Source: Rikenellaceae bacterium
GTDB lineage: Bacteria; Bacteroidota; Bacteroidia; Bacteroidales; UBA932
NCBI GenBank assembly: GCA_900771335.1
Contig: CAAGNP010000012.1
Span: forward strand, 62,350 to 126,349
Length of the DNA: 64,000 nt
Reading direction: 5' to 3'
A program made the position numbers and the translations under genes. Shown here piece after piece: positions 7,342 through 39,016 of the stretch (within the stretch, counting starts at the first letter, position 1; each line of letters starts with the position of its first letter). Under the pieces are notes generated by a model. The model worked only from the letters and a program-made list of their open reading frames with translations, did not search any database and was not told where the DNA came from.

Positions 7342-7384
7342 ATTCTTATATTTTTAAATTGTTATTACTTCGTTTTATGTATTG

Positions 7385-7392: not shown

Positions 7393-7472
7393 CTGCCGTA
7401 TTTTTATTTACACAAACGATACAATCTATAAGAATATTGACGCAATCAATATTTATCCAACCTTTCGCCCCC

Positions 7473-8150
7473 CTATAGCTTCTTGGAACACAAGTACCAT
7501 TCGTGGCACTTTAACCCCTCCTCTGCCACACGCTCCTTGGCCTCATCAGTGGTAATAGGGTAATGGAGCACTACATCTTTTCCAGGCTCCCAATTGGCCG
7601 GCATTGCCACTCCGTGGGCATCTGAGGTCTGAAGACCTATTATGACCCTCTTGATCTCTTCAAAGTTGCGGCCCAGATTGAGGGGATAATATATGATGGC
7701 ACGGATCTTATCTGCAGGATCGATAAAAAATACTGCACGAATACAGGCATTGTTGCTCTCTCCCGGCATTATCATTCCGTATAAGGTAGAGACATTTTTG
7801 CTCAAATCGACGATGATAGGGAAGCCTATCTCCACATTTTTCGCCCCCTCCCACTCTATCTTCTCCTGAATATTCCTTACCCATGCAATGTGGCTGCTGA
7901 GGCTGTCGACAGAAAGACCCACTATCTGGGTATTGAGCGCCTCAAACTCTTTCTGCATATTGGCAAAAGCGATAAACTCTGTGGTGCATACAGGGGTAAA
8001 ATCTGCAGGGTGGCTGAAAAGGATCTTCCATTTTCCCGCATAATCTCCGGGGAAGTTCAATTTTCCGTGGGTGGTCATCGCCCTGAACTCTGGGGCCTGG
8101 TCCCCAATTCGGGGCATAGACCACTGAATAGAAGTGTTTTGTGTATCCAT
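7473..8150 (-). CDS. Peroxiredoxin, Prx6 (1-Cys-type) subfamily, copy 2
   Basis: DFTPVCTTEF and a C-terminal CHEWYLC. By eye it is roughly two-thirds identical to copy 1. Confidence 0.9.
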   Translation of the reverse strand: MDTQNTSIQWSMPRIGDQAPEFRAMTTHGKLNFPGDYAGKWKILFSHPADFTPVCTTEFIAFANMQKEFEALNTQIVGLSVDSLSSHIAWVRNIQEKIEWEGAKNVEIGFPIIVDLSKNVSTLYGMIMPGESNNACIRAVFFIDPADKIRAIIYYPLNLGRNFEEIKRVIIGLQTSDAHGVAMPANWEPGKDVVLHYPITTDEAKERVAEEGLKCHEWYLCSKKL

Positions 8151-13661: not shown

Positions 13662-14526
13662 ATGAATATGTATCGCCATTATTGCAGAAATGATGAAACT
13701 ATATTTTTAAATTTCAATGAGGATTTCCAAAATTCAGTTTTTATTTCTCAGTCTCAACACCATAGCCTTGGTTTTGCGACACATATACCCGATTATTGTG
13801 ACGATTATTTTTGTTCTAAACCTTTAATAGTATCGCAAAACAAATCCATCAAACTGGACCTCAGATGTGAAGATGAGGATGGTACTTCTTTCATCATAGA
13901 TGATGCAGAAGTACGATCAGGAAAATTTCTTCAAAAGGTGTGTATCCTACAGTTCTAAAGTGTACGACATCAAAAACACAAAAGGGGACAGAGATTATGA
14001 TATCCCTCCGGTATATCTGATAGGTATTCTGGCTGTGGATTGCTTTGAAAGAAGTTCCGAATGGTGGAGAGGGAGATTTATATCCGACTACACTTTCAGA
14101 GAAAAATCTACAGGAGAGATAGTTTGTGAGACTATTTCTCTTATCTTTGTAGAACTGAAGAGGTTTGACAAGCCCCTTGAAGAGTGTAAGGACATTATAG
14201 ACAAATGGTGTTATGCACTAAAATATATGTCCAGACTGGATGAACTCCCTTCTGAATTACAGAACAGGGTATTCAAGAAACTCTTCAAAGCTGCTGAAAT
14301 CGCCCACTTCAGTACTGAAAAACGTAATATATACCAACACGAGATGATTACCGAAAGAGACGAAATCAATATCCGCAGAACAGCTGAAAAGAGAGCTCGT
14401 GCTGAAGGTCGTACTGAAGGAAGACTTGAAGTGTCTAAAAAAATGATTGAAAACGGTATGTCCATCGATGAAGTTGTCAAATATACCGGTATCCCTATAG
14501 AAGAGATCTCTTCTGAAATAGAATAG
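13662..14526 (+). pseudogene. Rpn / PD-(D/E)XK nuclease-family transposase-like gene, frameshifted
   Basis: Two overlapping ORFs sit in different frames. The family core LDLRCEDEDGTSFII(E)MQKYDQENFFKR is split by one extra nt near 13899-13902, with a TAG at 13897 in the downstream frame. The C-terminus (AEKRARAEGRTEGRLEVSKKMIENGMSIDEVVKYTGIPIEEI) is typical of the family. The N-terminus is not recognisable. Confidence 0.6.
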
Positions 14527-15930: not shown

Positions 15931-16015
15931 CGGAGAGAGAGGGATTCGAACCCCCGAACCCGTTAAGGTCAACGGTTTTCAAGACCGCCGCATTCGACCA
16001 CTCTGCCATCTCTCC
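15931..16015 (-). tRNA. tRNA-Ser (anticodon UGA), long variable arm, no encoded CCA
   Basis: The reverse complement is GGAGAGATGGCAGAGTGGTCGAATGCGGCGGTCTTGAAAACCGTTGACCTTAACGGGTTCGGGGGTTCGAATCCCTCTCTCTCCG. The acceptor is GGAGAGA/TCTCTCC, the anticodon loop is CTTGAAA, and the discriminator is G. Confidence 0.9.
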
Positions 16016-20685: not shown

Positions 20686-21180
20686 ATGAGTATTATCGAT
20701 ATTATCATCCTGATCCCTTTTGCTTTTGCACTATATAAGGGCATTTCAAACGGATTTGTAGGTCAAGTTGCAGGTATCAGCGGCATCGTATTGGGTATCA
20801 TCCTCGGCAGCAGATTTTCCGCACTCCTATCTTCCTACGTAGCCCAATGGATCAGTGCCAGCGAGGCTGTCATCAAAATCATATCCTTTGCAATTATCAT
20901 CGTGGCAGTTATACTTTTGGCCAACATTCTGTCCAAACTCATTGAAAAACTGTTCTCGCTTGTAATGTTGGGATGGCTCAACAAACTGCTCGGAGTCCTG
21001 TTGGCATTTGCCGGCACAGCTTTTATTGTAGGATCTGTCATTGCACTTATCTCATATATAAACGAGAGCTGGTTCACCATTATTCCTGCATCCAAGATTG
21101 AGGAATCCGTCCTATACCACCCTCTGGAGGACCTTGTGAATATGATTTTCCCATATTTCCAAAATTTCTTCACCAAGTAG
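20686..21180 (+). CDS. cvpA: CvpA-family membrane protein
   Basis: Four-TM protein starting MSIIDIIILIPFAFALYKG, the typical CvpA N-terminus. The start was set at ATG 20686. Confidence 0.8.
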   Translation: MSIIDIIILIPFAFALYKGISNGFVGQVAGISGIVLGIILGSRFSALLSSYVAQWISASEAVIKIISFAIIIVAVILLANILSKLIEKLFSLVMLGWLNKLLGVLLAFAGTAFIVGSVIALISYINESWFTIIPASKIEESVLYHPLEDLVNMIFPYFQNFFTK

Positions 21181-21218: not shown

Positions 21219-21268
21219 GACGATTTTTACAACAGATGCAGATGTTGTAGAAATCGTCAAACTTTTTT
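21219..21268 (+). terminator. Strong rho-independent terminator after cvpA
   Basis: 16-bp stem GACGATTTTTACAACA / TGTTGTAGAAATCGTC (one mismatch) with an 8-nt loop, followed by AAACTTTTTTATT. Confidence 0.8.
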
Positions 21269-21280: not shown

Positions 21281-21288
21281 TAAGTTTG
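21281..21288 (+). promoter_or_regulatory. -7 box (TAAGTTTG) heading the GG-peptide export locus
   Basis: TAnnTTTG 20 nt upstream of the smORF ATG at 21309 and just downstream of the cvpA terminator. Confidence 0.5.
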
Positions 21289-21308: not shown

Positions 21309-21449
21309 ATGAAAAATTTGAGGAGAGAGATATTGGAGAGTGTCGGCAGAATATTGCCGGAGTTCAGCCCGAACCTGCTCATAGCTTATATTGTTTCCCT
21401 CTGCCTGGCCTCCGCTCTTTTCATTATCCTATCAATCGTAGTGTTATGA
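21309..21449 (+). CDS. 46-aa tail-anchored small membrane protein (below the ORF-track cutoff)
   Basis: Hand translation gives MKNLRREILESVGRILPEFSPNLLIAYIVSLCLASALFIILSIVVL. The C-terminal 25 residues are hydrophobic. The stop overlaps the ABC start in an ATGA (21446-21449). Confidence 0.5.
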   Translation: MKNLRREILESVGRILPEFSPNLLIAYIVSLCLASALFIILSIVVL

Positions 21450-23578
21450 GCAGAATAATGAAAATACGCCAATTGGACAAGCATGACTGCGGAGCGGCAT
21501 GCCTGGCATCCATCTCATCATACTACGGACTGACTATACCCGTTACAGAGATCAGACAAAAATGCAATACCGGCCTAGAGGGGACAAACATAGGGGGGAT
21601 TGTCCGAGCTGCAACATCTTTACAGCTCGAAGCTCACGCTTATAAATCTTCAACACCTTGCTATACATCAAAACATCTTTCAGAAATCCCCCTCCCCTCT
21701 ATTCTCCACTTCAGAAACACTGAAGGGTGGCTGCATTTCGTGGTGCTATACAAAGTAACAGAGAAACATATCCATATAATGGACCCTTCAGACGGAGAGG
21801 TGCACAAGCTTAATGAGAAGGAATTCTCTGAGGCTTGGACAGGCTACATTATAACTGTATCACCCCGGGAAGGTTTTCTCAAAGGGGACACTACTACCCC
21901 ATTCATCAAAAGGGTAATCGGACTGGTTTCACTCTACAGGAAGGAGATAATACCATCTCTGATAGGATCTATGATATATGTACTGATAGGGCTAAGTATC
22001 TCCATATTCTTACAGAACATCATAGACAATATCATTCCGAACAGGGACACTTACACCTTCGGATGGTACTCTTTAGGGATAGGGATACTGATAGCTCTGT
22101 CGGTATTCATAGGGTATATCCGGTCTGTTCTCACCATTCGTGGGAGCATCAAAATAGATGGGACACTGATTTTGGGATACATATATCACATCCTCCGCCT
22201 CCCCTTGGCATTTTTCCATGAAAGGAGTACCGGAGACATAAATTCAAGGGTGAATGATGTTTACAGAATCAGGGCTTTTGTCTCAGGGAAACTCATTATG
22301 ATCTCAATATCTGTAGTCGCACTGATATTGTCATTCATACTTCTGTTTACCTTCTATTGGAAGCTGGCTGCCCTGACTATGGGGTTCATCCCCCTCTATG
22401 CGATTCTCTATTTCATTGCCGACAAGAGGAACAAGAAGAACAATAAAAGGATTATTGAGGCATCTGCCATTTTTGAGAACAGCACGATCGGGAGCATCAC
22501 ATCCATTGAGACGGCCAAATACTTTTCATCAGAGGAGCTTTTCTACAAAAAAGTGGAGGGTAAATATACCGATATGGCCCACAAACTTTTTTATGGTGGA
22601 AAGAGCAATGCAAAAATTCATCTGATGATAGACACAGTCACACAGATGCTCTCATTTATCACCATCATCCTGGGAACACTGTTCGTTCTGAATGGAGAGC
22701 TTACCACAGGGGAACTGGTCTCATTCTACACCATCTCCAGTTTCTTCACATCTCCACTCTCAATCCTCATAGAGAGCACCTACGAGCTAAATGATGCCAA
22801 GATAGCGGCTCAGAGGGTATTTGAGATTCTCGATTTGAAGGAGGAGTTCATTTGTGATAAAGAGAGGATACCGGTGCCCCCTGCCTCGGGGGATATAACC
22901 TTCAAAAATATCTCATTCCGCTATCCGGGGAAAAGAAACCTCTTCCAAAACCTTAACCTTACTATCCATCAGGGGGCGATAACATCGGTAATTGGGGACA
23001 ATGGGTGCGGCAAAAGTACCATTGCATCGCTTTTAATGCGGGGGTACCTCCCCACAGAGGGGTCAATAGAGATAGATGGGACAAATATAAACGACATAGA
23101 TATTCAGGAGTGGCGCAAACACATATCAATCATCCCACAAAAGGAGAGTTTGTTTGATGGAACCGTACTGGATAATATTGTGCTTGGAGATTGGAGCAAG
23201 GGCATTGACAATGTGCTGGAGACATGTGAATATGTCGGGATGATTGATTTTTTCAAACAACACCCAAAAGGGTTGCAGACGCGGGTAGGTGAACAGGGGA
23301 AGTACCTGTCCTCTGGGGAGAGGAGCAAAATATCCCTCGCCAGGGCAATAATACGCCAACCCAGGATTCTGATTATGGATGAGGTGACATCCCACCTCGA
23401 CTCAGAATCGGCATCCAGAATATATGAGATCTCCCGGGAACTCACCTCCAAAGGGGTAACAATTCTAAACATTACCCATGATAAGAGGTTTCTGGAGTAT
23501 TCAGACTATATAGTAGATCTTAATAAATGTGTACACAACGGTGAAGAGCGCACACCTGAAAGTTGCACTCAAGCTTAA
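21446..23578 (+). CDS. Peptidase C39 domain-containing ABC exporter (bacteriocin/GG-leader peptide processing and export)
   Basis: The N-terminal C39 domain has the QLDKHDCGAAC catalytic Cys, a later His (WLHFVVLY) and Asp (IMDPSD). A six-TM domain follows. The NBD has Walker A GDNGCGKST, signature LSSGE and Walker B ILIMDE. Confidence 0.92.
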   Translation: MSRIMKIRQLDKHDCGAACLASISSYYGLTIPVTEIRQKCNTGLEGTNIGGIVRAATSLQLEAHAYKSSTPCYTSKHLSEIPLPSILHFRNTEGWLHFVVLYKVTEKHIHIMDPSDGEVHKLNEKEFSEAWTGYIITVSPREGFLKGDTTTPFIKRVIGLVSLYRKEIIPSLIGSMIYVLIGLSISIFLQNIIDNIIPNRDTYTFGWYSLGIGILIALSVFIGYIRSVLTIRGSIKIDGTLILGYIYHILRLPLAFFHERSTGDINSRVNDVYRIRAFVSGKLIMISISVVALILSFILLFTFYWKLAALTMGFIPLYAILYFIADKRNKKNNKRIIEASAIFENSTIGSITSIETAKYFSSEELFYKKVEGKYTDMAHKLFYGGKSNAKIHLMIDTVTQMLSFITIILGTLFVLNGELTTGELVSFYTISSFFTSPLSILIESTYELNDAKIAAQRVFEILDLKEEFICDKERIPVPPASGDITFKNISFRYPGKRNLFQNLNLTIHQGAITSVIGDNGCGKSTIASLLMRGYLPTEGSIEIDGTNINDIDIQEWRKHISIIPQKESLFDGTVLDNIVLGDWSKGIDNVLETCEYVGMIDFFKQHPKGLQTRVGEQGKYLSSGERSKISLARAIIRQPRILIMDEVTSHLDSESASRIYEISRELTSKGVTILNITHDKRFLEYSDYIVDLNKCVHNGEERTPESCTQA

Positions 23579-23588: not shown

Positions 23589-23780
23589 ATGGAAGAGAAA
23601 AATTCAATGGGAAAGAACTGGGTAGAGCTGAGCACTTCCGAGGCAGAGGCAGTCAGAGGTGGAATCGGGTTAGGAAACATCAAACATCTGTTAAAGTTGA
23701 TTGGAAGTTTGTTCAACTTCGCCCACGACTATTATGAAGACTTCAAGCGTGGCTACGAAAATGGGTGGAATCTGTTCTAA
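23589..23780 (+). CDS. Double-glycine-leader precursor peptide A (alternative start 23607)
   Basis: M(EEKNSM)GKNWVELSTSEAEAVRGG | IGLGNIKHLLKLIGSLFNFAHDYYEDFKRGYENGWNLF. The GG codons are at 23658-23663. It starts 10 nt after the ABC stop. Confidence 0.75.
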   Translation: MEEKNSMGKNWVELSTSEAEAVRGGIGLGNIKHLLKLIGSLFNFAHDYYEDFKRGYENGWNLF

Positions 23781-23794
23781 AAAAGGGGGATATT

Positions 23795-23977
23795 ATGTAC
23801 AAGAATTTTATAGCATTGACCGAGGATGAATTATACGACATATACGGAGGGAGATCGGAAGATATGGCTGACATAGTTGAATTTATCGGTATGGGATTCG
23901 GGATTATTGCCAAACTTATAGACAAGATCAAATCGGCATTCAAGGATGCCCAGAAAAAACCTGCACAGGCACAATAA
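23795..23977 (+). CDS. Double-glycine-leader precursor peptide B
   Basis: MYKNFIALTEDELYDIYGG | RSEDMADIVEFIGMGFGIIAKLIDKIKSAFKDAQKKPAQAQ. The GG codons are at 23846-23851. The stop overlaps the OMP start (TAATG). Confidence 0.75.
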   Translation: MYKNFIALTEDELYDIYGGRSEDMADIVEFIGMGFGIIAKLIDKIKSAFKDAQKKPAQAQ

Positions 23978-25197
23978 TGGAGAGGATTGCCACCTTAATG
24001 TTCTTGCTTCTGCTTCATGCCTCTCCACTTTTGTGCTCCGGTCAAAATATATGGACATTGGATATGTGCATAGAATATGGTCTTGAGCACAATCTGGATA
24101 TAGAGTATAGCAGAATTACCTCTATTCAGGCCAAAAATGAACTGATCAGGTCCAGACTGGAGTATTTGCCCACCCTAAATGGGACAGCGGCACTGAGTAT
24201 CCATCCTGAGTCTCAGTTCACCCCATCAATAGGTATGTCATCCATACTGTTTGACGGAATGAGAAGATACAACAGCACTAAGAGCCTGAAGACATCATTT
24301 GAGATATCTGAGGTGGAGAGTGAGAGGATCAGAAACGAACTCTCTATCTCCATAACCAAAGCATATTTGGATGTACTACTCTCCATAGAGCTGGAGAGGG
24401 TAGCAAAGGAGAGTTACAGAACTATTGAGGAGCAATGCCTTAAGCAGAAAATACTTTTCGAATCGGGGAAGAGCACATACTCATCCCTATTGGAGATGGA
24501 ATCACAAAAATCTTTGGAGAAGGTGGAGCTGGTCAACTCACATAACGTTTTATCAATAAACCTCATATCATTAACACACTTGATGAACCTCCCCTTCTCT
24601 GAGGATTTCTTCATATCAGACCAGCTGGTGGAGAACATGCCGCTTATAGAGTGGTCAGATATAGAGAGGATATATAAATCTGCACTCTCCCTACCCTACA
24701 TAAGATCAGCTGAACTTGGCGTTATCCAAAAGGGATATGACATGAAGATAGCTGCAGGTGGAATATCTCCCACTATCTCCATAGATATGATATACAACCT
24801 CAAGATGGACATCAACCAAATAGGGCTGACGGTGATAATACCCATTTTCAACAAAGGCCAAACACTGACATCGGTCAAAAACGCCACTTATGAGTACAGA
24901 AAATCTGAAATTGAACTGCAAAGGAGGCATCAGGAACTCTACAAGGATATCCAACATAGGGTACAGGAGGCCATATCATACTACCATGGGCATATGGCAG
25001 CCATTGACCGGCTCAACGCTGCCCGAACAGCCTATGAAACTATCAGAGAGAAGTTCGAAGTGGGGCTTGTATCACCAAACGATTACATCAGAGCCAGGAA
25101 TGATCTGTATGAGGCATCTTCCCAATCCATACAGACCAAATACAGATATTTGTTTCAAATCAAAATTCTAGATTTATACCAAGGTGAAGCCAGGTAA
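23977..25197 (+). CDS. TolC-family outer membrane efflux protein
   Basis: Has a signal peptide and two repeats of the TolC-type coiled-coil/beta pattern (LEYLPTLNG..., YRYLFQIKILDLYQG). Confidence 0.85.
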   Translation: MERIATLMFLLLLHASPLLCSGQNIWTLDMCIEYGLEHNLDIEYSRITSIQAKNELIRSRLEYLPTLNGTAALSIHPESQFTPSIGMSSILFDGMRRYNSTKSLKTSFEISEVESERIRNELSISITKAYLDVLLSIELERVAKESYRTIEEQCLKQKILFESGKSTYSSLLEMESQKSLEKVELVNSHNVLSINLISLTHLMNLPFSEDFFISDQLVENMPLIEWSDIERIYKSALSLPYIRSAELGVIQKGYDMKIAAGGISPTISIDMIYNLKMDINQIGLTVIIPIFNKGQTLTSVKNATYEYRKSEIELQRRHQELYKDIQHRVQEAISYYHGHMAAIDRLNAARTAYETIREKFEVGLVSPNDYIRARNDLYEASSQSIQTKYRYLFQIKILDLYQGEAR

Positions 25198-26338
25198 AAT
25201 AAAGATAAGATGGTGGTATTACCCCTCCGCTTTCCTTCTACTCATTATAGTCTTACTAAGTGGAGGGGATGAAGGGACTGCAGTGTATGTGTCCACCCCG
25301 GAAATAACCGACATCTCCGAGAGTATCCCGGCAAACGGGAAGGTTCGCCCTGTATCGGAGGTCCATATCAGCCCTGATGTTTCCGGGGAGATAATAGAGA
25401 TCCTTTTTGAGGAGGGTATGGCTGTACAAAAGGGGGATCTCCTCATCAAAATCAAACCTGACATTTACATATCCATCCTGGACCAGGCAATGGCCACATT
25501 CAAAGCGACCAAAGCGCAATATGCACAGCAGGAGGCAACACTTGAGAGGGCAAAGGTGCAGTTTGAAAGATACTCCACCCTCCTGGAGAAGAGGGCCATT
25601 TCACTCGCAGAATATGAGGAGGCCAAGATAGATTACACGATTGCCCTGAAAGGGCTTGAAACCTCCAAATATCAGATCCAAAGTGCTCAGGCAGGGGTTA
25701 GAGAGGCTCAGGAGAATCTCTCCAAAACAGCAATATACTCACCTATGGATGGGGTTATCACCAAGCTGCTTGTGGAGAAGGGGGAACGTGTAGTGGGTAC
25801 ATCCCAAATGGCAGGCACAGAGATAATGAGGATATCTGATATGACCCATATGGAGGTGGTGGTGGATGTCAATGAAAATGATATTGCCAGGATAACCAGA
25901 GGGGACAGTGTGGAGATAGTATTTGACGCACTCAGACATGAGCTTTTCCAGGGAATCGTCACTAAAATAGCCAACTCATCCAAAAGTCTGGGATATAGTG
26001 CCGATCAGGTGGCATCTTTCGAGGTGAACATTCTCATTATTGGGGGGAGTGAACATTTGAGACCAGGAATGTCTGCATCTGTTACTATAAACACAGAAAA
26101 AAAAGAGAACATTATTACTGTACCTCTTCGGTGTATAAATCCAAATGGTTGTATATTTGTAGTCTCAAATGACCGGACTACGGTTCAGCAGAGAAGTATC
26201 ATCACCGGTATACAGGATATCCATCGGATAGAGATAATAGAGGGTATCGGACCGGATGAGGAGATTGTAATAGGGCCACATGAAGCCATAAACAAAAATT
26301 TGACCGACAATGGAAAAATATTTATTGATAGAGACTAG
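25184..26338 (+). CDS. HlyD-family membrane fusion (periplasmic adaptor) protein
   Basis: N-terminal TM anchor, a lipoyl-like segment (VSGEIIEILFEEGMAVQKGDLLIKI), a coiled coil and beta-barrel segments. It has a GTG start with a 14-nt overlap with the OMP gene. Confidence 0.85.
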   Translation: MKPGKIKIRWWYYPSAFLLLIIVLLSGGDEGTAVYVSTPEITDISESIPANGKVRPVSEVHISPDVSGEIIEILFEEGMAVQKGDLLIKIKPDIYISILDQAMATFKATKAQYAQQEATLERAKVQFERYSTLLEKRAISLAEYEEAKIDYTIALKGLETSKYQIQSAQAGVREAQENLSKTAIYSPMDGVITKLLVEKGERVVGTSQMAGTEIMRISDMTHMEVVVDVNENDIARITRGDSVEIVFDALRHELFQGIVTKIANSSKSLGYSADQVASFEVNILIIGGSEHLRPGMSASVTINTEKKENIITVPLRCINPNGCIFVVSNDRTTVQQRSIITGIQDIHRIEIIEGIGPDEEIVIGPHEAINKNLTDNGKIFIDRD

Positions 26339-27008
26339 CACAGACGCATGTTCTGCAGCTATCGCCGAAGGGGAAAAAATTATAGCATCCGAGTATATTC
26401 AGGAATATAAGTCCCATGCCAGATTACTTGTACCTATGGTCGAAAAGCTGCTGAAAAAGGCAAGCATCTCCCTCTCGGAATGCTCAGCTGTAGCGGTAAG
26501 CGAGGGTCCGGGATCATATACCGGATTAAGGGTCGGAGTCTCTTCTGCCAAAGGGTTGTGCTATGGGGCAGGAATTCCTTTGTTGGGAATACCCACCCTC
26601 GACATCCTGGCCCAGATGGGTATTGAGAAGACAAATACCGCCAACAGCGTCATCGTCCCAATGCTCGACGCAAGGAGAATGGAGGTCTATTGCGCCTCAT
26701 ACGACCATCTCGGCAGAAGAATCTCGGATATAAAAGCTGAGATTCTGGGTGAAAACAGCTTTGAGGATCTTTTCGCCCAATACGACCAGGTTATCTTCAT
26801 CGGGGATGGCGCAGAGAAGTTCGAAGTGTGCCTCGATGAGGCCAAAAAGGGGAAGTCCACCATCATAGGGTGCAGACCGGATGCCAGATACATGGTCAAT
26901 CCCGCTATTGATGCATACAAAAAAGAAGAGTTCAAAGATATTGCATACTTTGAACCCTTCTATCTTAAAGATTTCGTGGCAGGTGTAAGTAAGAAATCTC
27001 TTATCTGA
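26310..27008 (+). CDS. tsaB: tRNA t6A37 biosynthesis protein TsaB
   Basis: MEKYLLIETSTDACSAAI and GPGSYTGLRVG motifs. The start overlaps the adaptor gene end by 29 nt. Confidence 0.9.
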   Translation: MEKYLLIETSTDACSAAIAEGEKIIASEYIQEYKSHARLLVPMVEKLLKKASISLSECSAVAVSEGPGSYTGLRVGVSSAKGLCYGAGIPLLGIPTLDILAQMGIEKTNTANSVIVPMLDARRMEVYCASYDHLGRRISDIKAEILGENSFEDLFAQYDQVIFIGDGAEKFEVCLDEAKKGKSTIIGCRPDARYMVNPAIDAYKKEEFKDIAYFEPFYLKDFVAGVSKKSLI

Positions 27009-28146
27009 CGAGTCTCGAAATCACCTTTTCCAATTTTGACATATCGAAAACATCTTTGTCCACGATATCACCTTTCTTGTCGATGATATAAAGGGTAGGG
27101 ATGTTGGTAATATTGTAAAGATTCAATGTTCCTGACATATTGCCCGGGTCACATACACTTACCCATTCAAGACCTTGTGCCTTAACCTGGCTTGCCCACG
27201 CTGTCTTGTCTGTATCGGCACACACCTGATAAACCTCAAGACCTCTGTTTTTGTATTTGTCATACAACTCCTTCAACTCAGCATTGAAGATTTTGTGTGT
27301 AGGCTCTGTAGTAGACCAGAAGGAGAGGATAATTACTTTACCGTCAAGCTCTGACAAGTTCCTTACCTTCGCATTTACATCATAAAGGCTGATATCAGGG
27401 TGGCTCATTTCAGATGCGTTGTCGATTTTGGTTCCAAAATAGATATATTGCTCCCTCTGCTTGATATCATCAGCCAAAGATGACACATATGGAGAGTTTG
27501 GATATACTACACTTAGAGAGTCGTACACTTTTTTGAAGATGAACACATCATTGATGTCTCCATACACAGGAAGCGCCTCTGAGAACTTCTGATAAAGTAC
27601 AGGGATAACTGAGATGGATTTGGAGTTATTGATAAGATATTTTGTAGAGTTCTGTTTATGTTGGACGAAAAGTTTTGTCAGCTCAGTAGTGAGTTCTCTT
27701 GCCTTTTTGTCATTTTTTGCCTGCTGGGCAGCATCCAGTTCATTGAAAAGGTTGTACACTTTTGTCAAAACCTCTTCTTGGGATCTCTCCCACTCGGCAT
27801 ATTTTACAGCCTCTTCTGATCCCTCAACGGTAGATATTCCATCCTTGGATACATTTACAGACAGCTTGTCTCCCTCCTGAAGGACTACAGATGCCATTTT
27901 CTTACCATCGTTAAGGAAATAGTAGAAATCAGGCGATCCCGGCTGGCAATTTGCCCCAAACTGAGTCTTCTCCCCTTTCACATATATGGTATCTACCACA
28001 TAAATTCTATTGATAGAAAGTTTGGTAACGATAATTTCTGTACTGTCGGCAGCACCCTCTACATTGAAGGTCACTTTTGCATTATATTTTTGTGAACATG
28101 ATGCCGCTACAACAAGTGCGAAGAATAGTAGTGCAATTTTTTTCAT
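27001..28146 (-). CDS. TlpA-like thioredoxin-fold lipoprotein lacking the CxxC motif (DUF4369-like N-terminus)
   Basis: Lipobox AASC. The C-terminal Trx fold (KVIILSFWSTTEPTHKIF...NIPTLYIIDKKG) has STTEPTH where WCxPC is expected. Confidence 0.7.
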   Translation of the reverse strand: MKKIALLFFALVVAASCSQKYNAKVTFNVEGAADSTEIIVTKLSINRIYVVDTIYVKGEKTQFGANCQPGSPDFYYFLNDGKKMASVVLQEGDKLSVNVSKDGISTVEGSEEAVKYAEWERSQEEVLTKVYNLFNELDAAQQAKNDKKARELTTELTKLFVQHKQNSTKYLINNSKSISVIPVLYQKFSEALPVYGDINDVFIFKKVYDSLSVVYPNSPYVSSLADDIKQREQYIYFGTKIDNASEMSHPDISLYDVNAKVRNLSELDGKVIILSFWSTTEPTHKIFNAELKELYDKYKNRGLEVYQVCADTDKTAWASQVKAQGLEWVSVCDPGNMSGTLNLYNITNIPTLYIIDKKGDIVDKDVFDMSKLEKVISRLVR

Positions 28147-29439: not shown

Positions 29440-30321
29440 TTATGGTTTGATAACAAACTCCTTGTCTTTGGTAATTTGCTCCTTCAACTGGTCCATTGAA
29501 GCAAATTTCCTTTCATCTCTGATTTTTGCTACAAATTCTATGCTCATTTCCAAGCCATAGATATCCTCGTCAAAATTCAGAATATGTGTCTCTATTGTTC
29601 TGCTCTGATTCTCCCCCACTGTAGGTCTATTTCCGATATTGCAAATACCCTTATAGTCCCTTCCCAATACATGCACATCCACAAGATAGACACCATTTGC
29701 CGGAACCAGCTTCAACGGTTCGTAGAGCTCCATGTTCGCAGTAGGGAAACCGATAGTCCTCCCAAGCTGCTTGCCTGAAACCACCACTCCGTGCAGAAGA
29801 TATTTGTATCCCAGCAACTCTGATGCCCCCTTGACATCTCCATCCAGAAGTGCCGCCCTGATTTTGGTCGAGCTGACCATCTTCTCACCCAAATGGACCT
29901 CTTCTACACGAATGGTCTCAATTCCAAGTGAGGCAGCGATCTCCCGCATCTCTTCCTGTGTCTGAAGGGATGAGTTTCCCAATCTGTGGTCATACCCTAT
30001 GACAAGTGTGGAGACATTGAATTTTTTTATAAGATACTCCTCCATAAACTCCTTGGTAGAGAGTTTACTGAACTCTCTGGAGAAATTGACAACATGGAAG
30101 TTGTCAATCCCCAGTGAGAGTACCCTTTGTTTTTTCTCTTCAAGAGAGTTCAATAATCTTAATGTATGTGCATCCTGCTGCAGTACAGTCCTAGGATGAG
30201 GCCAGAAAGTGATTACAGCACTCTCCATCTGTCTCTCGGCAGCTATCTGAAGCAGACTGTTGAGAACAGCGCGGTGCCCACCATGCACCCCATCAAAGAA
30301 ACCGGTAGCTGCTACAACCAT
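29440..30321 (-). CDS. ribF: Bifunctional riboflavin kinase / FMN adenylyltransferase
   Basis: GFFDGVHGGH at the N-terminus and GFPTAN in the kinase half. Confidence 0.9.
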   Translation of the reverse strand: MVVAATGFFDGVHGGHRAVLNSLLQIAAERQMESAVITFWPHPRTVLQQDAHTLRLLNSLEEKKQRVLSLGIDNFHVVNFSREFSKLSTKEFMEEYLIKKFNVSTLVIGYDHRLGNSSLQTQEEMREIAASLGIETIRVEEVHLGEKMVSSTKIRAALLDGDVKGASELLGYKYLLHGVVVSGKQLGRTIGFPTANMELYEPLKLVPANGVYLVDVHVLGRDYKGICNIGNRPTVGENQSRTIETHILNFDEDIYGLEMSIEFVAKIRDERKFASMDQLKEQITKDKEFVIKP

Positions 30322-33300
30322 CTTACAAGTTCGAAATCTTGACGGTGAGGAAGTTTGTCACTCTTGGCAAAAATTCTACCTGCAATCTGGTATGCACCTG
30401 TAGTATTTGGAACGATAGTCGAAGAGTATGTTGCCACACCATTTTCAATCTTCTCAAAATCAAATGTGTAAACGCCCTCTTTAACATATCTTCCTTTGGC
30501 ATTCTGACGTGCATATACCAACTCAAATCCGATATCATTAGGATCCATATCACCTACGAATACTGAGATATATGATTTGAACTCTTTACCAAGAAGCAAT
30601 TGTCCTTGGGCATCGTTCATGAAGTTCGATTCACGGATCTCAAGTTGCTCCCAACCTTTACGCATTTTTCTCTTCCATAGTGCGATCTCTCTTGCCTCAG
30701 CGTAATCAGATGCGATAAGTTTGCCTGCTCTTGCTGCAAGTGGTTTGTAATATTTATCAATATAATCGTTGAACATTCTGTTGGTAGTGAAGTCGCATGC
30801 TACCTTGGCAATACAGTTCTTGATGATCTTGATCCACTCTGTAGGGATACCTGTCACAGGGTTTACATCATAGTATGTAGGTGCGATTTCACTCTCAATA
30901 ATATTGTAGATGGTAGCTGCATCCAATTCATCCTGGAAGTTCTGGTCATCGTATGTTCTCTCTTGTGGAAGAGCCCAACCAGCACCCTCTTTGTAACCTT
31001 CTACCCACCATCCGTCAAGTACAGAGAAGTGCATTACACCGTTCATAGCAGCTTTCTCTCCTGATGTACCAGAAGCTTCAAGTGGTCTTGTAGGGTTGTT
31101 CATCCATACGTCCACACCTTGAACAAGATATTTTGCGATGTTGATATCGTAGTTAGGGACGAATACGATCTTACCGATAAACTGAGGCATCTTGGAGATA
31201 TCTACAATCTTCTTGATCAAATCGCTGCCGGCCTTGTCTGCAGGGTGAGCTTTACCTGCGAATAGGAATTGAACAGGTCTCTTAGGATTGTTTACAATAG
31301 CAGAAAGTCTGTCCAAGTCTCTGAATAGAAGGTGTGCTCTCTTATATGTAGCAAAACGTCTTGCAAAACCGATGGTCAAAACGTCGTCTCTAAGTGTTCT
31401 CTTGATCTCTACGATATGTTGTGGAGAGTAGTGGCTTGAAACTGTAGGGTCAGAAAGTTGTTTCTTGACAGCCTTGATAAGTCTCTGACGAAGTTCCTGA
31501 CGAACACTCATAATCTCGGCATCTTTCACCTCATAGATACCGTTGAAGCACTCTTTGTCGTATTTGTGTGTTTTGAATTCGTCACCGAAAACTCTGGCGT
31601 GGATCTCTTTCCATTGTGGAGCAGTCCATGTAGGATAGTGAACACCATTGGTTACATAACCTACGTGGTTCTCTTCAGGAAGGTAACCTGGCCACATGCT
31701 AGCCAAGATATCCTGACTCACTTTACCGTGTAGCCAGCTCACACCGTTAACCTCTTGAGAGATGTTGCAAGCAAGATTACTCATAGAGAATTTCTCATTC
31801 TGATCGTATGGGTTATTCTTACCTAGGGACATAAGTGTATCCCAACCAATTTTCAATCTCTCTGGATAGTGTGAGATATATTTTCTCAATAGATCCTCAT
31901 GGAATGCATCGTGACCTGCAGGTACAGGGGTATGTGTAGTGAATAGAGATGAAGCTCTAACTACCTCCAATGCTTCGTCATAAGATAGGTTATCATTGTT
32001 GATATACTCTCTTAGTCTCTCAAGACCGGTAAATGCAGCGTGACCCTCGTTGCAGTGGTATACATCTGCATCAAGACCCAAAGCACGCATTGCTCTGATA
32101 CCACCGACACCTAGAAGAAGCTCCTGTTTCAAACGGTTCTCCCAATCGCCACCATATAGATGGTAGGTAACCTGACGATCCTCTGGAAGGTTTGCATCGT
32201 AATCAGTATCCAACAAGTAAAGCTCAGTTCTACCTACATCCACTCTCCAAAGTCTTGCGTAGATATTTCTGCCAGGGAATGCTACAGAGATGGTAACCCA
32301 TTTGTCCTCTGCGTCTCTCACTGGAACTGCAGGTATTTTCATGAAGTCCTGAGGTTCGTAGTCAGCGATCTGATCACCGTAACCTGAAAGTTTCTGATTG
32401 AAGTAACCATATCTGTAAAGGAGACCGATACCGATCATGTTAACATTAAGGTCACTTGACTCTTTCAAATAGTCACCAGCCAAGATACCAAGACCACCAG
32501 AATAGATCTTAAGTGATGCGTCAAGACCATACTCCATACAGAAGTATGCAATCGATGCACCCTCACGGTGATTCTTAGCCTCCATATACTCATTGAACAA
32601 AGCTGCCACTTTATCCAATTGGCGTACGAATTTCTCGTTTTTCTCCAATTGTTGGTACTGTTCATATGATAGATGGTCTAGAAGTGCTATAGGGTTACGT
32701 CCCAATGCTACCCACAACTCTTTGTCAATGCTCTTAAACAAATCCATCGCTTCCTGGTTCCAGCACCACCATAGATTCTTAGAGATTATATCAAGATATT
32801 TCAATCTCTCTGGTATGTTCCTTGTCACCAAAACTCTGTTCCAGGAAGGTGTTCCTACGTCAATTTTCTTGTATGTCATATTTTTTATATTGTTTTTTTC
32901 AGGGAATTTCCCTTTTCTTTCTATTACTCTTTCTATTGCCAAAGAGTATGCCTCTTTGTAAAATTTCAAATGGTTTTTCCACAATGCTATCTCCGATACA
33001 GATTTGGCATTGTCTCTATATTTTTTCTGCTCTTTTTCGCTTAGAGAAGATATCTCCACGATCTTTTCACAGACACCATCCACCACCTCCGAGTAGTTGG
33101 ACTCACCCCTTTCGAGGACAGAGATTCCCGGATGGTCTTTGGTGTAGTACTCATTTACCCATAGACCAAAACCGGCAAGTGTCGTAGTGACTGTTGGTAC
33201 CTTAAATGCCAATGACTCAAGAGGTGTATAACCCCATGGCTCATAGTATGAAGGAAATACCGACAGATCAAGACCCGACAGAAGCTGATAGTATGGAAGG

Positions 33301-34547
33301 TTGAATACGCCATCATTACCATTCAGATAGGATGGGATGAAAAGCAGCCTTACATTCTTATTGGATCTGTTGTTCAGACCCAACGCTCCCATTCTACAGA
33401 GGACAGGGTCGTTTTCAGGATACTGCAAATTGTGTGAGGTGTGGGTGGTATAGTCGCTCTCCTTGCCCCCAAGTTTGGCCACAAGCTCCTTGTCATATCC
33501 GTTGATCCCTGCAGGGACAAGAATAAAGCCCAGGATCGTCCTTCCTTCATATGAAGAGTTCTCCAATTGGGCAAGAGAATCCACGAATATGTCTATACCT
33601 TTGTTCTTATATTCGTATCTCCCTCCGATTCCGACCAGCACGGGATTTTCAAATACCTCCCCTGTCATAGCCTGAGCCACCTCAATAAGCTTCGCTCTAC
33701 CCTCTTTCTGGTATTTAACGAACTCTTCGGATCCAGGGACAATGGTATCTTCGAAGCCGTTTGGTGTCACAAGATCCACATCCTTGCTAAGGAATCTTGA
33801 ACACTCCTTGGCAGTAAGGTCGCTGACGGTGGTAAATACATCCGCATTGTGCGCAGCACACTTCTCCAATGAGTGCTTCGCTGCCACATTCAACTCTCTA
33901 GCCTTCTGATCTCCGTCTACAATATCAATGACATCGTAAAGCTTGATATTGTTGTATGCAAGGCTACGCCCCAATGTGGTGGCGTGGGTGGTAAACGCTG
34001 TCGCAACAGGGAGTGGTGTCTGCTTCAGATACAATACGCCGGCACCTGTCATCCATTCGTGGAACTGGGCCACCACCTTCTGGCTTGGAAGGAGATTGAA
34101 GTTTATAAAACTCTCGATAACCCTACCGGCTGCATATCCGAACAGAGCCGATTCTACATAGTCCCAGCCACCACTCAGGGAATCAAGATGATACTTCTCC
34201 CAAAACTCTGAGAGAATTTCATTTTTCCTGGTGATGTACTGCGAAAAATCTACTAAAAATGCTATTGGTTTCCCCTGTACATTCCATCTACCTACCCTCA
34301 CTCTGATACCCTCCTGGGCAGCAGAGACCCTCCATGTTCTATATAGGAGCGGATCTTCAGTGAATTCGGGGTTCTGGGTGGTATCCATCCAGACATCGGG
34401 ACCAATGAAGATTTGCTCCTGATTGATCCCTTCTGCCATACCGATGGATTTGGTAGCAATCACGGTGTGGATACCCCCCACTTTATTGCATACCTCCCAA
34501 CTAACCTCGAACAAGTAGTCGGGGCTAATCAACTTTTTCTGCTTCAT
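30312..34547 (-). CDS. Fusion protein: GT3 (eukaryote-type) glycogen synthase + GT35 alpha-glucan phosphorylase
   Basis: The N-terminus has the GT3 hallmark FEVSWEVCNKVGGIHTV. The C-terminal ~850 aa have the phosphorylase PLP-lysine block EASGTSGEKAAMNG. It is a single uninterrupted 1411-aa ORF. Confidence 0.85.
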   Translation of the reverse strand: MKQKKLISPDYLFEVSWEVCNKVGGIHTVIATKSIGMAEGINQEQIFIGPDVWMDTTQNPEFTEDPLLYRTWRVSAAQEGIRVRVGRWNVQGKPIAFLVDFSQYITRKNEILSEFWEKYHLDSLSGGWDYVESALFGYAAGRVIESFINFNLLPSQKVVAQFHEWMTGAGVLYLKQTPLPVATAFTTHATTLGRSLAYNNIKLYDVIDIVDGDQKARELNVAAKHSLEKCAAHNADVFTTVSDLTAKECSRFLSKDVDLVTPNGFEDTIVPGSEEFVKYQKEGRAKLIEVAQAMTGEVFENPVLVGIGGRYEYKNKGIDIFVDSLAQLENSSYEGRTILGFILVPAGINGYDKELVAKLGGKESDYTTHTSHNLQYPENDPVLCRMGALGLNNRSNKNVRLLFIPSYLNGNDGVFNLPYYQLLSGLDLSVFPSYYEPWGYTPLESLAFKVPTVTTTLAGFGLWVNEYYTKDHPGISVLERGESNYSEVVDGVCEKIVEISSLSEKEQKKYRDNAKSVSEIALWKNHLKFYKEAYSLAIERVIERKGKFPEKNNIKNMTYKKIDVGTPSWNRVLVTRNIPERLKYLDIISKNLWWCWNQEAMDLFKSIDKELWVALGRNPIALLDHLSYEQYQQLEKNEKFVRQLDKVAALFNEYMEAKNHREGASIAYFCMEYGLDASLKIYSGGLGILAGDYLKESSDLNVNMIGIGLLYRYGYFNQKLSGYGDQIADYEPQDFMKIPAVPVRDAEDKWVTISVAFPGRNIYARLWRVDVGRTELYLLDTDYDANLPEDRQVTYHLYGGDWENRLKQELLLGVGGIRAMRALGLDADVYHCNEGHAAFTGLERLREYINNDNLSYDEALEVVRASSLFTTHTPVPAGHDAFHEDLLRKYISHYPERLKIGWDTLMSLGKNNPYDQNEKFSMSNLACNISQEVNGVSWLHGKVSQDILASMWPGYLPEENHVGYVTNGVHYPTWTAPQWKEIHARVFGDEFKTHKYDKECFNGIYEVKDAEIMSVRQELRQRLIKAVKKQLSDPTVSSHYSPQHIVEIKRTLRDDVLTIGFARRFATYKRAHLLFRDLDRLSAIVNNPKRPVQFLFAGKAHPADKAGSDLIKKIVDISKMPQFIGKIVFVPNYDINIAKYLVQGVDVWMNNPTRPLEASGTSGEKAAMNGVMHFSVLDGWWVEGYKEGAGWALPQERTYDDQNFQDELDAATIYNIIESEIAPTYYDVNPVTGIPTEWIKIIKNCIAKVACDFTTNRMFNDYIDKYYKPLAARAGKLIASDYAEAREIALWKRKMRKGWEQLEIRESNFMNDAQGQLLLGKEFKSYISVFVGDMDPNDIGFELVYARQNAKGRYVKEGVYTFDFEKIENGVATYSSTIVPNTTGAYQIAGRIFAKSDKLPHRQDFELVRWL

Positions 34548-34565: not shown

Positions 34566-35765
34566 TTATCCCAATCTTAGCTTTCTCTCAATACGGATTG
34601 TCAAGTCACTTAGAACATTCATATAGTTGATGAATGCCTCATATGGTGTGTCGTAAGGATTGAAGTATGTATGAACTGCTCCATCAGAGAAGAACTTGGT
34701 ACACATATAGTAGAAGTGGTCACTCTCCTGAAGTTTCATATAATCCTTGGTGATCTTGTCGTCTTGAAGGGCCAATACTCTATCGCTCAGGTCATACAAT
34801 TTGCTGAATGCTTCGTTCTGAAGCTCGTTTCCTAGCCAAGCAGATGTGTCTCTCTCCTCATCTGCCCAAGAGATTGAGAATGGTACATTAATAGGTGATA
34901 CTGCGTCGTGTTTCTTGATAGCCTCTGAAGGGGTTACAAACTCTACATTTGCTTTGTTTATAAGGGCTTCAGGAAGTGCTCTCATGAAATCAAAGATACC
35001 GCTTGCTGCACTCTGGTGCTCACCGAATGTCTCATAATCCATAAACAGGTTGATGATCTCATCTTTAGATGCCTGGTCAGCTACCCATGATGCGAACTTG
35101 TCAGTGTCCAAAGGCCACTCGTTCCAACCTTTATCTGAGAATCTGAATGCGATATCATCACTCAAAGTGAAGTTTCTAAGAAGAACTTTCAACTTTGGAT
35201 TGTTTGCATTTGAATATACATAGTTAGGTGATTTCCAACCAAGGATGTGTTTTGCACCCTCAGTCAACATCCCTTTGAATCCAAGTTTGTAAACCATCTC
35301 ACCGATCTCGTCAGAGTAGATAAGCTCAGTATTTCTGAAGCATTTTGGCTTTTTGCCGAAATGTTTCTCAATAGCTTTGCTGTGAAGTTCTACCTGTTTC
35401 TTGAACTCATCTTTGGATACCAGTGATGCCAGCGAGTGGGTATAGGTCTCTGCCAAGAACTCTACACAACCTGTCGCTGCAAGAGCTTTGAAGCTGTCCA
35501 ATACCTCAGGAGCATATTGCTCAAACTGCTCGATGGCAGAACCAGAGATAGAGTATGCAATCTTGAATGATTTGCCAAGTTTGTTGATATTCTCAAGCAT
35601 AATGGCATTCATAGGAAGGTAGCATTTCTCAGCCACTCTTCTTACGATGGTTCTGTTTGAGAAATCGTCGAAATAGTGAGAATCTTTTCCGATGTCGAAG
35701 AATCTGTATTGTCTTAGACGATCAGGTTGGTGTACCTGGAAGTACAAACAAATTGAAGGTTTCAT
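34566..35765 (-). CDS. Glycoside hydrolase family 57 protein
   Basis: N-terminal ICLYFQVHQPDRL block typical of GH57, in a glycogen cluster context. Confidence 0.8.
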   Translation of the reverse strand: MKPSICLYFQVHQPDRLRQYRFFDIGKDSHYFDDFSNRTIVRRVAEKCYLPMNAIMLENINKLGKSFKIAYSISGSAIEQFEQYAPEVLDSFKALAATGCVEFLAETYTHSLASLVSKDEFKKQVELHSKAIEKHFGKKPKCFRNTELIYSDEIGEMVYKLGFKGMLTEGAKHILGWKSPNYVYSNANNPKLKVLLRNFTLSDDIAFRFSDKGWNEWPLDTDKFASWVADQASKDEIINLFMDYETFGEHQSAASGIFDFMRALPEALINKANVEFVTPSEAIKKHDAVSPINVPFSISWADEERDTSAWLGNELQNEAFSKLYDLSDRVLALQDDKITKDYMKLQESDHFYYMCTKFFSDGAVHTYFNPYDTPYEAFINYMNVLSDLTIRIERKLRLG

Positions 35766-35777
35766 ATGTAGTAATTT

Positions 35778-37064
35778 TTATTTCAATGCTAATTCATAAA
35801 TATGTTTCATCTTAGCTGCTGCGTGATCCCATTTAAGGGCGTTCACCTCATCATAACCCTTATCAGCAGCCATTTGTGCAAGGGCAGGATATTGTAGCAG
35901 GCCATACATTGCATCTGCAAGTGCGTCCACATCCCAGAAGTCCACCTTGATGGAGTATTTCAACACCTCGGCTACACCCGACTGTTTTGAAATGATGGTA
36001 GGTACGCCTGTGATCATAGCCTCAAGAGGTGAGATACCGAATGGCTCAGATACAGAAGGCATCACATACACATCAGAGTACGCGAACATCTTCTGGACAT
36101 CTGCACCTCTAAGGAATCCTGTAAAGTGGAACTTGTCAGAGATACCCAACTTGGCCACCTGTCTGATACTGCGGTTGAGAAGGTCGCCGCTACCCGCCAT
36201 TACGAAACGGACATTAGAGCATCTTTTCAAAACCTTGTTGGCAGCTTCGATGAAGTATTCAGGACCTTTCTGGAAGGTGATACGGCCAAGGAAGGTCACC
36301 ACTTTCTCATCCACGCTCCTCTCTACCTGCATCTGTTTCCTGTCGGCAAAGTCTACTGCATTGTGTACAGTAAACACTTTGTCAGGATTGATACCATATT
36401 TATTGATTACGATATTACGGGTAAGGTTACTTACAGTAATAACCTTGTCAGCCTCCCTCATACCCATTTGCTCGATAGCAAATACCTGGGTGTTCACATT
36501 CTCGCCGGTCCTGTCGAACTCAGTAGCGTGAACATGGATTACAAGAGGTTTACCCGATATTCTCTTGGCAGCGATACCGGCCATATATGTAAGCCAGTCA
36601 TGTGCGTGAATAACATCGAACTCATCTTTATGTTGAGCTGCTATCTCACCACCCACCATGGCATATCTTGATATCTCCTCCATCAAGTTTGTGCCATACT
36701 TGCCTGAGAATTTATATTTCTGTTTGAAATTTACTTTGAAATCTTCGATTTGGGATTTCTGGTCCTTAGATGACATCTCTGTGAATTTTACAGGATCCAT
36801 ATAAGGCACCATGTTGGTCCCTACGCGAAGGAATTGAACCCTCTCAAGAAACTCTTTTGGGTTCCTTACCACATCACTTACTTCGACATCACTCGCATTA
36901 AGAATTCTGGTATAGGTCTGATCTTCATCTCCGGATGCCGAAGGCATTACAAACAGTGTATCCACACCGTTGTTTGCCAAACCTTTAACTATACCGTAGC
37001 AAGCGGTTCCGAGACCACCTGCAATATGGGGAGGAAACTCCCAACCAAACATAAGTACTCTCAT
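35778..37064 (-). CDS. GT4-family glycosyltransferase (glycogen-synthase-like)
   Basis: FGWEFPPHIAGGLG N-terminus and the E-x7-E region SEPFGISPLEAMITGVP. Confidence 0.8.
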   Translation of the reverse strand: MRVLMFGWEFPPHIAGGLGTACYGIVKGLANNGVDTLFVMPSASGDEDQTYTRILNASDVEVSDVVRNPKEFLERVQFLRVGTNMVPYMDPVKFTEMSSKDQKSQIEDFKVNFKQKYKFSGKYGTNLMEEISRYAMVGGEIAAQHKDEFDVIHAHDWLTYMAGIAAKRISGKPLVIHVHATEFDRTGENVNTQVFAIEQMGMREADKVITVSNLTRNIVINKYGINPDKVFTVHNAVDFADRKQMQVERSVDEKVVTFLGRITFQKGPEYFIEAANKVLKRCSNVRFVMAGSGDLLNRSIRQVAKLGISDKFHFTGFLRGADVQKMFAYSDVYVMPSVSEPFGISPLEAMITGVPTIISKQSGVAEVLKYSIKVDFWDVDALADAMYGLLQYPALAQMAADKGYDEVNALKWDHAAAKMKHIYELALK

Positions 37065-37067
37065 AAC

Positions 37068-39002: not shown

Positions 39003-39016
39003 TTGATATATCGATA

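Follow-up and report, generated by a model that had tools for sequence, protein, structure and literature searches.

A conserved pair of double-glycine-leader peptides encoded with a tripartite-type exporter in uncultured Bacteroidales: a candidate class-IIb-like two-peptide system

Two-peptide (class IIb) bacteriocins have so far been described from Gram-positive bacteria, and the only validated double-glycine (GG) leader toxins of Bacteroidales are the bacteroidetocins, which are single-peptide, disulfide-bonded and mobile. Bacteroidetocins ('class IIf') have 15–16-aa leaders and two to four cysteines, usually four, with disulfides, act as single peptides and target BamA; they are encoded at a four-gene locus that includes a protein with five transmembrane (TM) segments and a thiol oxidoreductase, has no gene for an outer-membrane efflux protein (OEP) or membrane fusion protein (MFP) and no known immunity determinant, and sits on integrative and conjugative elements (ICEs) or other mobile regions of low GC content (PMC6671954, PMC8546649). 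More broadly, the predicted class II precursors reported from Bacteroidota number in the thousands (PMC12648112), and clusters for peptides made by ribosomes and modified post-translationally (RiPPs) that combine a peptidase-containing ATP-binding cassette transporter (PCAT) with an MFP and an outer-membrane protein have been described in the phylum (PMC10352776). A literature search of a limited collection turned up no unmodified bacteriocin of two peptides from Bacteroidota or other Gram-negative bacteria. Here, we analyze a stretch of 64,000 nucleotides (the window) from a Rikenellaceae bacterium (assembly GCA_900771335.1, contig CAAGNP010000012.1), in which a first-pass annotation had singled out two adjacent small genes, here pepA and pepB, as precursors of a candidate two-peptide bacteriocin or signal pair. 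What is new here are two uncatalogued peptide families that are locked as a pair, each with a defining GxxxG motif; a dedicated exporter operon that keeps one core-genome position down to family-level divergence; and, with it, a conserved tail-anchored mini-protein and a constant adjacency to cvpA.

Both open reading frames (ORFs) were recovered at the positions and with the sequences first given for them. On the forward strand, pepA (23589..23780) encodes a precursor of 63 aa and begins 10 nt after the PCAT gene, and pepB (23795..23977) encodes 60 aa, begins 14 nt after pepA and ends in a stop codon that overlaps the OEP start (TAATG). The genes stand in a tightly packed, fully co-oriented row that runs from a small tail-anchored membrane ORF through PCAT, pepA, pepB, OEP and MFP to tsaB. 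Counted back from the GG, the pepA leader has W at −15 and reads L(−12)STSE(−8)A(−7)EAV(−4)RGG from −12 onward, and the pepB leader has F at −15 and reads L(−12)TEDE(−8)L(−7)YDI(−4)YGG, as originally described; both match an LSxxELxxIxGG-type consensus. A six-frame regular-expression scan of the whole window for this pattern returned pepA, pepB and one antisense ORF inside a larger gene, and because the scan was otherwise near-empty, two adjacent leader matches directly 3' of a C39-ABC gene are not a chance occurrence. The annotation had noted that, with the 23607 start for pepA, both leaders are exactly 19 aa, which is wrong for pepA: the residue at the 23607 Met is R, K, E, M or L in homologs, whereas the whole family keeps the MEEK/MDEK start at 23589, and the pepA leader is therefore 25 aa (23589–23663, +, ending in AVRGG), next to 19 aa for pepB (23795–23851, +, ending in DIYGG). 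The predicted mature peptides are a 38-aa core A (23664–23777, +; IGLGNIKHLLKLIGSLFNFAHDYYEDFKRGYENGWNLF, ~4.5 kDa, net charge 0) and a 41-aa core B (23852–23974, +; RSEDMADIVEFIGMGFGIIAKLIDKIKSAFKDAQKKPAQAQ, ~4.5 kDa, net charge +1). Neither contains cysteine. Core A combines an amphipathic N-half with an aromatic/acidic C-half, and core B a hydrophobic GxxxG segment with a Lys-rich tail, both in line with the earlier description. The GMGFG motif of core B was likewise confirmed, and the GxxxG logic proposed for it extends to core A, where a second motif (GYENG) had been missed.

The first-pass annotation had cautioned that the ORFs might be spurious or untranslated. They are short and are unannotated or 'hypothetical' in every source, as spurious frames in the spacer between the ABC and OEP genes would be, but this explanation is effectively refuted. 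Across six lineages, the proportion of synonymous differences in pepA and pepB is saturated (pS 0.66–0.91), whereas that of nonsynonymous differences is low (pN 0.11–0.12 in the cores and ~0.27 in the leaders). The frames run without frameshifts through 13 lineages, and the start codon and the GG site are conserved. An exhaustive HMMER search with a pepA profile against 1.84 billion representatives recovered the pepA superfamily, with 19 sequences at E < 1e-3 and the best down to 1e-32; nearly all of these are ~62 aa long, with a 24–25-aa MEEK...SEL..IRGG leader and a core that ends in EYxxDFxRGFKKGW. By these comparative measures, pepA and pepB are real, translated genes under purifying selection. 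Their relatives come from uncultured organisms: word-based searches yielded 6 pepA and >30 pepB homolog clusters, all from metagenomes or metagenome-assembled genomes (MAGs), with homologs labelled 'hypothetical protein [Bacteroidales bacterium]'. In a PCAT scan of a species-representative collection, the sole close genome was the water-buffalo colon MAG RGIG7513, with a PCAT 99% identical to that of the window, and a metagenome scan with alignment A2 gave 2 loci only.

Pairing of the two genes was followed through 13 lineages, namely the window with L006 and L028; L001–4; L005; L012/13; L014/15; L016/17; L018; L020; L021; L022–24; L025/26; L027 with L030/31; and L029. One pepA followed by one pepB is present in 13/13, including pairs 34–45% identical to that of the window, and no duplications, losses or swaps occur among them. 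The two genes are separated by 12–35 nt or overlap by 1–4 nt. The annotation had also held that homologs lacking any exporter would speak against the prediction; a PCAT gene lies upstream in every locus in which upstream sequence is visible. This constancy bears on the possibility that A and B are independent of each other, as two microcin-like class II bacteriocins of the single-peptide kind that share one exporter and are each active alone, comparable to tandem microcin or blp genes. Such an arrangement would account for the GG-leader/PCAT/MFP/OEP logic, which is that of class II microcins (PMC12219008; PMC10352776), for the unrelated cores and for the several substrates encoded at many PCAT loci. 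We nevertheless consider it improbable: the strict content of one A and one B in fixed order over deep divergence is unlike redundant tandem bacteriocins, which are expected to be gained, lost and shuffled, the pair is translationally coupled in some lineages, no core feature other than GxxxG is invariant in either peptide, and a single candidate immunity ORF would have to serve two toxins. The cores are effectively unrelated, as first proposed, because a profile–profile comparison of A and B with hhalign gives a probability of only 22%, mostly over the leader. Paralogy was considered on the same comparison and is not established, as its remaining contribution is an 'IG' register. Here, 'LIG' of core A and 'FIG' of core B stand in the same register, 13–14 residues past the GG (probability 22%), which could be a weak hint that A and B are very old paralogs.

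The PCAT gene (21446..23578, +; 710 aa) encodes a C39 peptidase, an ABC transmembrane domain and an ATPase (Pfam PF03412, Peptidase_C39; PF00664, ABC_membrane; PF00005, ABC_tran), although its match to TIGR01193 (422 bits) is under the 523.85-bit cutoff. The best relative in the PDB is PCAT1 (4RY2, E 4e-109), and the alignment to it includes the DCGAACL, HFVV and DP motifs. The catalytic residues Cys15, His97 and Asp113 are present, with Walker A at 517 and Walker B at 641, and the catalytic Cys is retained in distant orthologs. Judged by its sequence motifs, the PCAT is an intact C39 protease and ATPase. Downstream of pepB lie an OEP gene of the TolC/OEP family (23977..25197, +; Pfam PF02321, E 3e-36) and an MFP gene for a periplasmic adaptor (25184..26338, +), which shares 14 nt with the OEP gene and 29 nt with tsaB. 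The MFP matches TIGR01730 above cutoff (189 bits) as well as Pfam HlyD_D23 and HlyD_3, whereas its score against the HlyD-type model TIGR01843 (64 bits) is below the 208-bit cutoff; it is thus of the RND/MacA type, unlike the HlyD/CvaA type usual for microcin type I secretion. Among the scanned ORFs (those of at least 200 aa within ~20 kb on each side, ~1–44 kb of the window), no modification enzyme was found in or beside the operon. Together, these features make it very probable that the precursors are made, cut after the GG by the C39 domain and released through a PCAT/MFP/OEP conduit.

AlphaFold2 models of each precursor show a short leader helix, a break at the GG and a single core helix, which spans residues 28–57 in pepA (pLDDT ~90) and 21–54 in pepB (pLDDT ~80), both from shallow alignments. 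The hydrophobic moments of the cores are 0.5–0.65, and in core B an acidic N-terminus is followed by a hydrophobic segment (Kyte–Doolittle ~1.65) and a basic tail. Across lineages, net charge ranges from −2 to +2 for A and from 0 to +6 for B, and the sum of A and B is positive in every pair (+1 to +7). In the pepA superfamily (22 sequences), invariance is confined to the leader GG and to G55/G59, which form the GxxxG within GYENG or GFKKG and make this motif the most conserved feature of the family as aligned. In the pepB superfamily, the GG and G36 are invariant, while conservation of G32 and S21 is at least 90%; the G13xxxG17 motif of core B is kept in 12 lineages, including L030, with Ala13 in one lineage. 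Small residues in B also form an i/i+4 stripe, which is descriptive only. Two further features of the window pair were considered and rejected. Half-to-half charge complementarity between A and B, seen in the window pair, is not conserved on inspection of distant pairs. The C-terminal 'GWNLF' of core A does not fit the register of an outer-membrane-protein beta-signal or a darobactin-like BamA mimic, and this tail is not kept in distant A members, which end in GQKLSQ, GWDLITSVKQ or GYNDNFD.

On balance, we tentatively favor a two-peptide bacteriocin of a class-IIb-like kind that leaves the cell through a Gram-negative tripartite system, a reading to which we give slightly less than even weight. 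It draws on the ordered pairing, the close genes, the GxxxG motifs, the helical membrane-type sequences and the single small TM ORF, all of which fit the list of class IIb hallmarks (PMC2850506). We infer cleavage, export, heterodimerization, toxicity and immunity as parts of one model. The operon, from the small TM ORF through the MFP gene, would be transcribed from a Bacteroidetes-type promoter at ~21281, and both precursors would be made in roughly equal amounts, since pepA and pepB are adjacent and translationally close. Their amphipathic leader helices would dock in the PCAT's C39 domain, which would cut after Gly25 of pepA and Gly19 of pepB, and the unmodified, cysteine-free peptides of ~4.5 kDa would be pumped through the conduit formed by the PCAT, the MacA-like adaptor and the OEP. 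Outside the cell, each peptide would adopt one long helix, with the aromatic C-half of A ending in GxxxG-W, and the two helices, packed against each other at the GxxxG motifs, would form a single membrane-active unit that damages competitors' membranes, a microcin in Gram-negative terms. The 46-aa tail-anchored protein would provide self-immunity or act as an accessory factor.

Several results weigh against this reading. The single peptides are near-neutral, with an isoelectric point of 6–8.4 in most lineages, while class IIb peptides are typically cationic, and the GxxxG of A lies within a polar context (RGYENGW). Conserved residues do not fall significantly on one helical face (100-degree conservation moment; 539/5000 shuffles for A and 1533/5000 for B). 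Neither core matches a Pfam, NCBIfam or PDB family. For 22 family members, Pfam and NCBIfam returned only sub-threshold GG-leader models (among them ComC, BlpC, lactococcin G-beta, CTB and the VP1 pheromone), with E values of 0.004–0.09 and, where coordinates were shown, mainly over the leader; leader-level profile matches of some members reach 3e-05 for ComC and 2e-04 for BlpC. The match to NF038034 (lactococcin G-beta/enterocin 1071B; E 0.004–0.009, 16 bits against a 37-bit cutoff) covers residues 8–32 of pepB, mostly leader, and model positions 1–13; as it lies mainly over the leader and under cutoff, the pair does not belong by sequence to a described class IIb family. A Foldseek search of the pepA model against the PDB gave 0 matches, and PDB profile searches gave chance-level ones only. 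Finally, OEP and MFP genes are absent from one lineage: in L025 (5853–8504) and L026, which correspond to JGI 3300014206 and NCBI MAG WCS34, the small TM ORF, PCAT, A and B are followed by tsaB after a 100-nt gap. The minimal conserved unit is therefore the small ORF, PCAT, A and B, and the outer-membrane part of the exporter would be dispensable or encoded elsewhere in that lineage.

The genomic setting adds to these points. The module occupies a constant site, preceded by IleRS and CvpA and followed by TsaB, Trx, HIT and GreA, in every lineage down to ~73% identity of isoleucyl-tRNA synthetase (IleRS), with ileS beyond cvpA and tsaB downstream wherever the contig extends that far. Identities to the window are 93–97% for IleRS in close lineages and 73–79% in distant ones, compared with 55–62% and 34–46% for PCAT, 62–78% and 34–45% for pepA, and 72–77% and 33–44% for pepB; in close lineages, they are 35–51% for OEP, 55–62% for MFP and 41–54% for the small TM ORF. 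With 35–51% identity where IleRS has 93–97%, OEP is the fastest-evolving gene of the neighborhood and more divergent than the peptides encoded beside it. GC content is flat (0.41–0.47) over the module and its flanks. No ICE genes were found among the scanned window ORFs, in which the sole mobile-element match is a PD-(D/E)XK transposase-family ORF (13900–14526, +), ~7 kb upstream of the module; it covers positions 73–226 of the 229 of its model and may be a fragment. Recent horizontal acquisition was considered and is rejected on the flat GC content and the conserved synteny. The fixed site in all lineages and the flat GC content instead mark the module, by comparative genomics, as an old part of the core genome that has been inherited vertically within an uncultured, family-level clade of Bacteroidales, rather than as an accessory island. 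Such inheritance, as read from these loci, is atypical of bacteriocins; these usually belong to the accessory genome or to mobile elements (e.g., PMC6671954).

The main rival explanation, which we regard as less likely than the bacteriocin, takes up exactly these points: a lineage-wide, non-antagonistic two-peptide system with the same processing and export, whose products target the producing cell or its kin. The peptides may form either a pair of signals or a small heterodimeric component of the envelope or membrane that PCAT delivers to the periplasmic side. Such a role would suit the fixed core-genome position, the flat GC content with its single distant mobile-element match, and an operon that physically overlaps the housekeeping gene tsaB. 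It would also suit cores that are better conserved than the exporter (~85% identity among close lineages against 35–62%), their near-neutral charge, and the lineage that lacks OEP and MFP genes, which fits action in the periplasm or at the inner membrane. In addition, the sole database matches are leader-level and point to the ComC, BlpC and VP1 pheromone models, and ComC/ComAB and BlpC offer a precedent as core-genome GG-leader signals. On the other hand, no histidine kinase or response regulator was found among the scanned ORFs, and typical peptide pheromones are smaller and less membrane-like than the mature peptides (38–49 aa, long amphipathic or hydrophobic helices that carry GxxxG). To our knowledge, peptide quorum sensing has not been established in Bacteroidales. 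A simple signal needs no two different, co-kept peptides, and most lineages encode a dedicated outer-membrane exit duct.

The original alternative of a two-peptide bacteriocin or a signal pair thus stands in part: GG precursors, pairing, GxxxG motifs and helices agree with it, whereas the near-neutral charge, the core-genome location and the missing class IIb homology speak against its bacteriocin side. With a little more reserve than for the bacteriocin, we propose an ancient, vertically inherited two-peptide system in which two unrelated GxxxG-bearing helical peptides would have diverged together with their PCAT at a single core-genome site; it may act as an obligate heterodimer, and would be either the first diderm class-IIb-type bacteriocin or a new conserved exported membrane or signalling unit.

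The arrangement upstream of PCAT suggests how the module is transcribed. The first gene of the operon is the tail-anchored membrane ORF (21309..21449, +; 46 aa; MKNLRREILESV...), whose stop codon overlaps the PCAT start codon. Ahead of it lie cvpA, encoding a homolog of the colicin V production protein (20686..21180, +; Pfam PF02674, E 5e-25), a terminator-like hairpin 3' of cvpA (21219..21268, +; 16-bp stem plus T-run), and a Bacteroidetes-type −7 box, TAAGTTTG (21281..21288, +), which is the likely module promoter. The hairpin is kept in L001, L005, L012, L014, L016 and L018, although its stem varies in sequence from locus to locus; its apex reads ACAAC...GTTGT. The box stands 20 nt before the small ORF, and TA[AT]GTTTG occurs at the equivalent place in 7 loci; the degenerate pattern TAnnTTTG is found 87 times in the window against 39.5 expected. 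Because a terminator hairpin and then a −7 box precede the module, cvpA would form a separate transcript. No further forward-strand box lies between 21281 and 26152, the next one being at 26152 within the MFP gene, and the peptides are most likely co-transcribed with the exporter from the promoter at ~21281. The box at 26152–26159, ~150 nt upstream of tsaB, is a possible internal promoter.

A cvpA homolog lies directly upstream in every locus that reaches past PCAT. It diverges at exporter-like rates, with 34–49% identity where IleRS has 73–79%. Across lineages, the small ORF encodes 44–50 aa; the N-terminus of its product is charged (E..S[VI]...[LI]P), a single TM helix lies at the C-terminus (Kyte–Doolittle 2.35–2.95 in a 19-residue window), and this architecture is present upstream of PCAT in 8/8 lineages examined for it, for example at 7718–7858 in L001, 3685–3825 in L005, 935–1069 in L018, 5707–5850 in L022 and 5587–5724 in L025. 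Gene callers annotate it only sporadically. From its position and topology, it is a candidate immunity or accessory protein, and the only such candidate in the operon.

Beyond the module, tsaB (26310..27008, +; TIGR03725, E 1.5e-50) belongs to t6A tRNA modification, and ileS, upstream of cvpA, is divergent. Downstream, on the opposite strand, follow a gene for a Trx-fold lipoprotein (27001–28146), which lies within conserved housekeeping synteny, a HIT gene, greA, ribF and glycogen-metabolism genes. The latter include one for a 1411-aa protein in which glycogen synthase and glycogen phosphorylase domains are fused (30312–34547, −); it is kept in all related loci and is adjoined by GH57, GT4/starch-synthase, debranching-enzyme and branching-enzyme genes (34566–40990). 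Elsewhere, two tRNA genes (708–780, − and 15931–16015, −) are the sole Rfam matches in the window, with none in the peptide locus, and a tandem pair of 1-Cys peroxiredoxin (AhpC/TSA) paralogs (6616–8150, −) lies near two serine beta-lactamase-fold genes (4455–6026 and 9006–10172).

The pair had initially been called unusual for Bacteroidota. GG-leader/PCAT peptides are in fact known or predicted there in numbers, and it is the strict two-peptide logic that we did not find reported in the collection searched. Unmodified, cysteine-free peptides of 38 and 41 aa are small enough for direct synthesis and testing. If synergy between them holds true, the GxxxG helix–helix mechanism of two-peptide bacteriocins would extend to diderms, in Bacteroidales of the ruminant and animal gut, and would offer narrow-spectrum peptides against gut Bacteroidales. 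If the non-antagonistic alternative is true, the deep conservation in the core genome would suggest that peptides exported by PCATs have a physiological role in Bacteroidales that has gone unrecognised. Either way, the adjacency of cvpA to a PCAT operon provides a new handle on this poorly understood gene.

Compared with the known systems, the locus shares phylum, GG leader, PCAT and unmodified peptides with the bacteroidetocins. It differs from them in its leaders (25 and 19 aa), its cysteine-free peptides, its tripartite exporter and its core-genome position, and from their four-gene locus in that its TM ORF has a single TM segment and the nearby Trx-fold gene is on the opposite strand. With ComC/ComAB and BlpC/BlpAB it has in common a core-genome locus, a GG leader with a PCAT and the leader-level profile matches. 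Those pheromones are, however, single peptides of ~17–27 aa encoded beside a histidine kinase and a response regulator, neither of which was found here in the scanned ORFs.

Class II microcins (MccV/colicin V, with CvaA-CvaB-TolC and Cvi) resemble the locus in their Gram-negative hosts, in their unmodified GG-leader peptides of <10 kDa and in export by a PCAT, an adaptor and an outer-membrane channel, which is predicted here from the encoded components. They also have small membrane immunity proteins and are often non-cationic, features that have possible counterparts in the candidate small TM ORF, the near-neutral peptides and the adjoining cvpA homolog. In contrast, microcins are single-peptide toxins on Enterobacterales plasmids or islands, use an HlyD/CvaA-type adaptor with TolC encoded elsewhere where this locus has an RND/MacA-type adaptor, and have neither a paired partner nor GxxxG logic, nor any homology to pepA or pepB.

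The Firmicutes class IIb bacteriocins lactococcin G, plantaricin EF/JK and enterocin 1071 (PMC2850506) differ from the pair in that its host is a diderm with OEP and MFP genes, its peptides are near-neutral where theirs are cationic, its candidate immunity gene lies upstream of the transporter, and its locus is core-genome and vertically inherited, with no three-component regulator. What they share with it is the overall design: two different, adjacent precursor genes in one operon; GG leaders, of 15–30 aa there and 25 and 19 aa here; unmodified mature peptides, here of 38 and 41 aa, with amphipathic or hydrophobic helices and GxxxG in both; a dedicated C39-ABC transporter; and a small membrane ORF in the operon, which here is a possible immunity gene.

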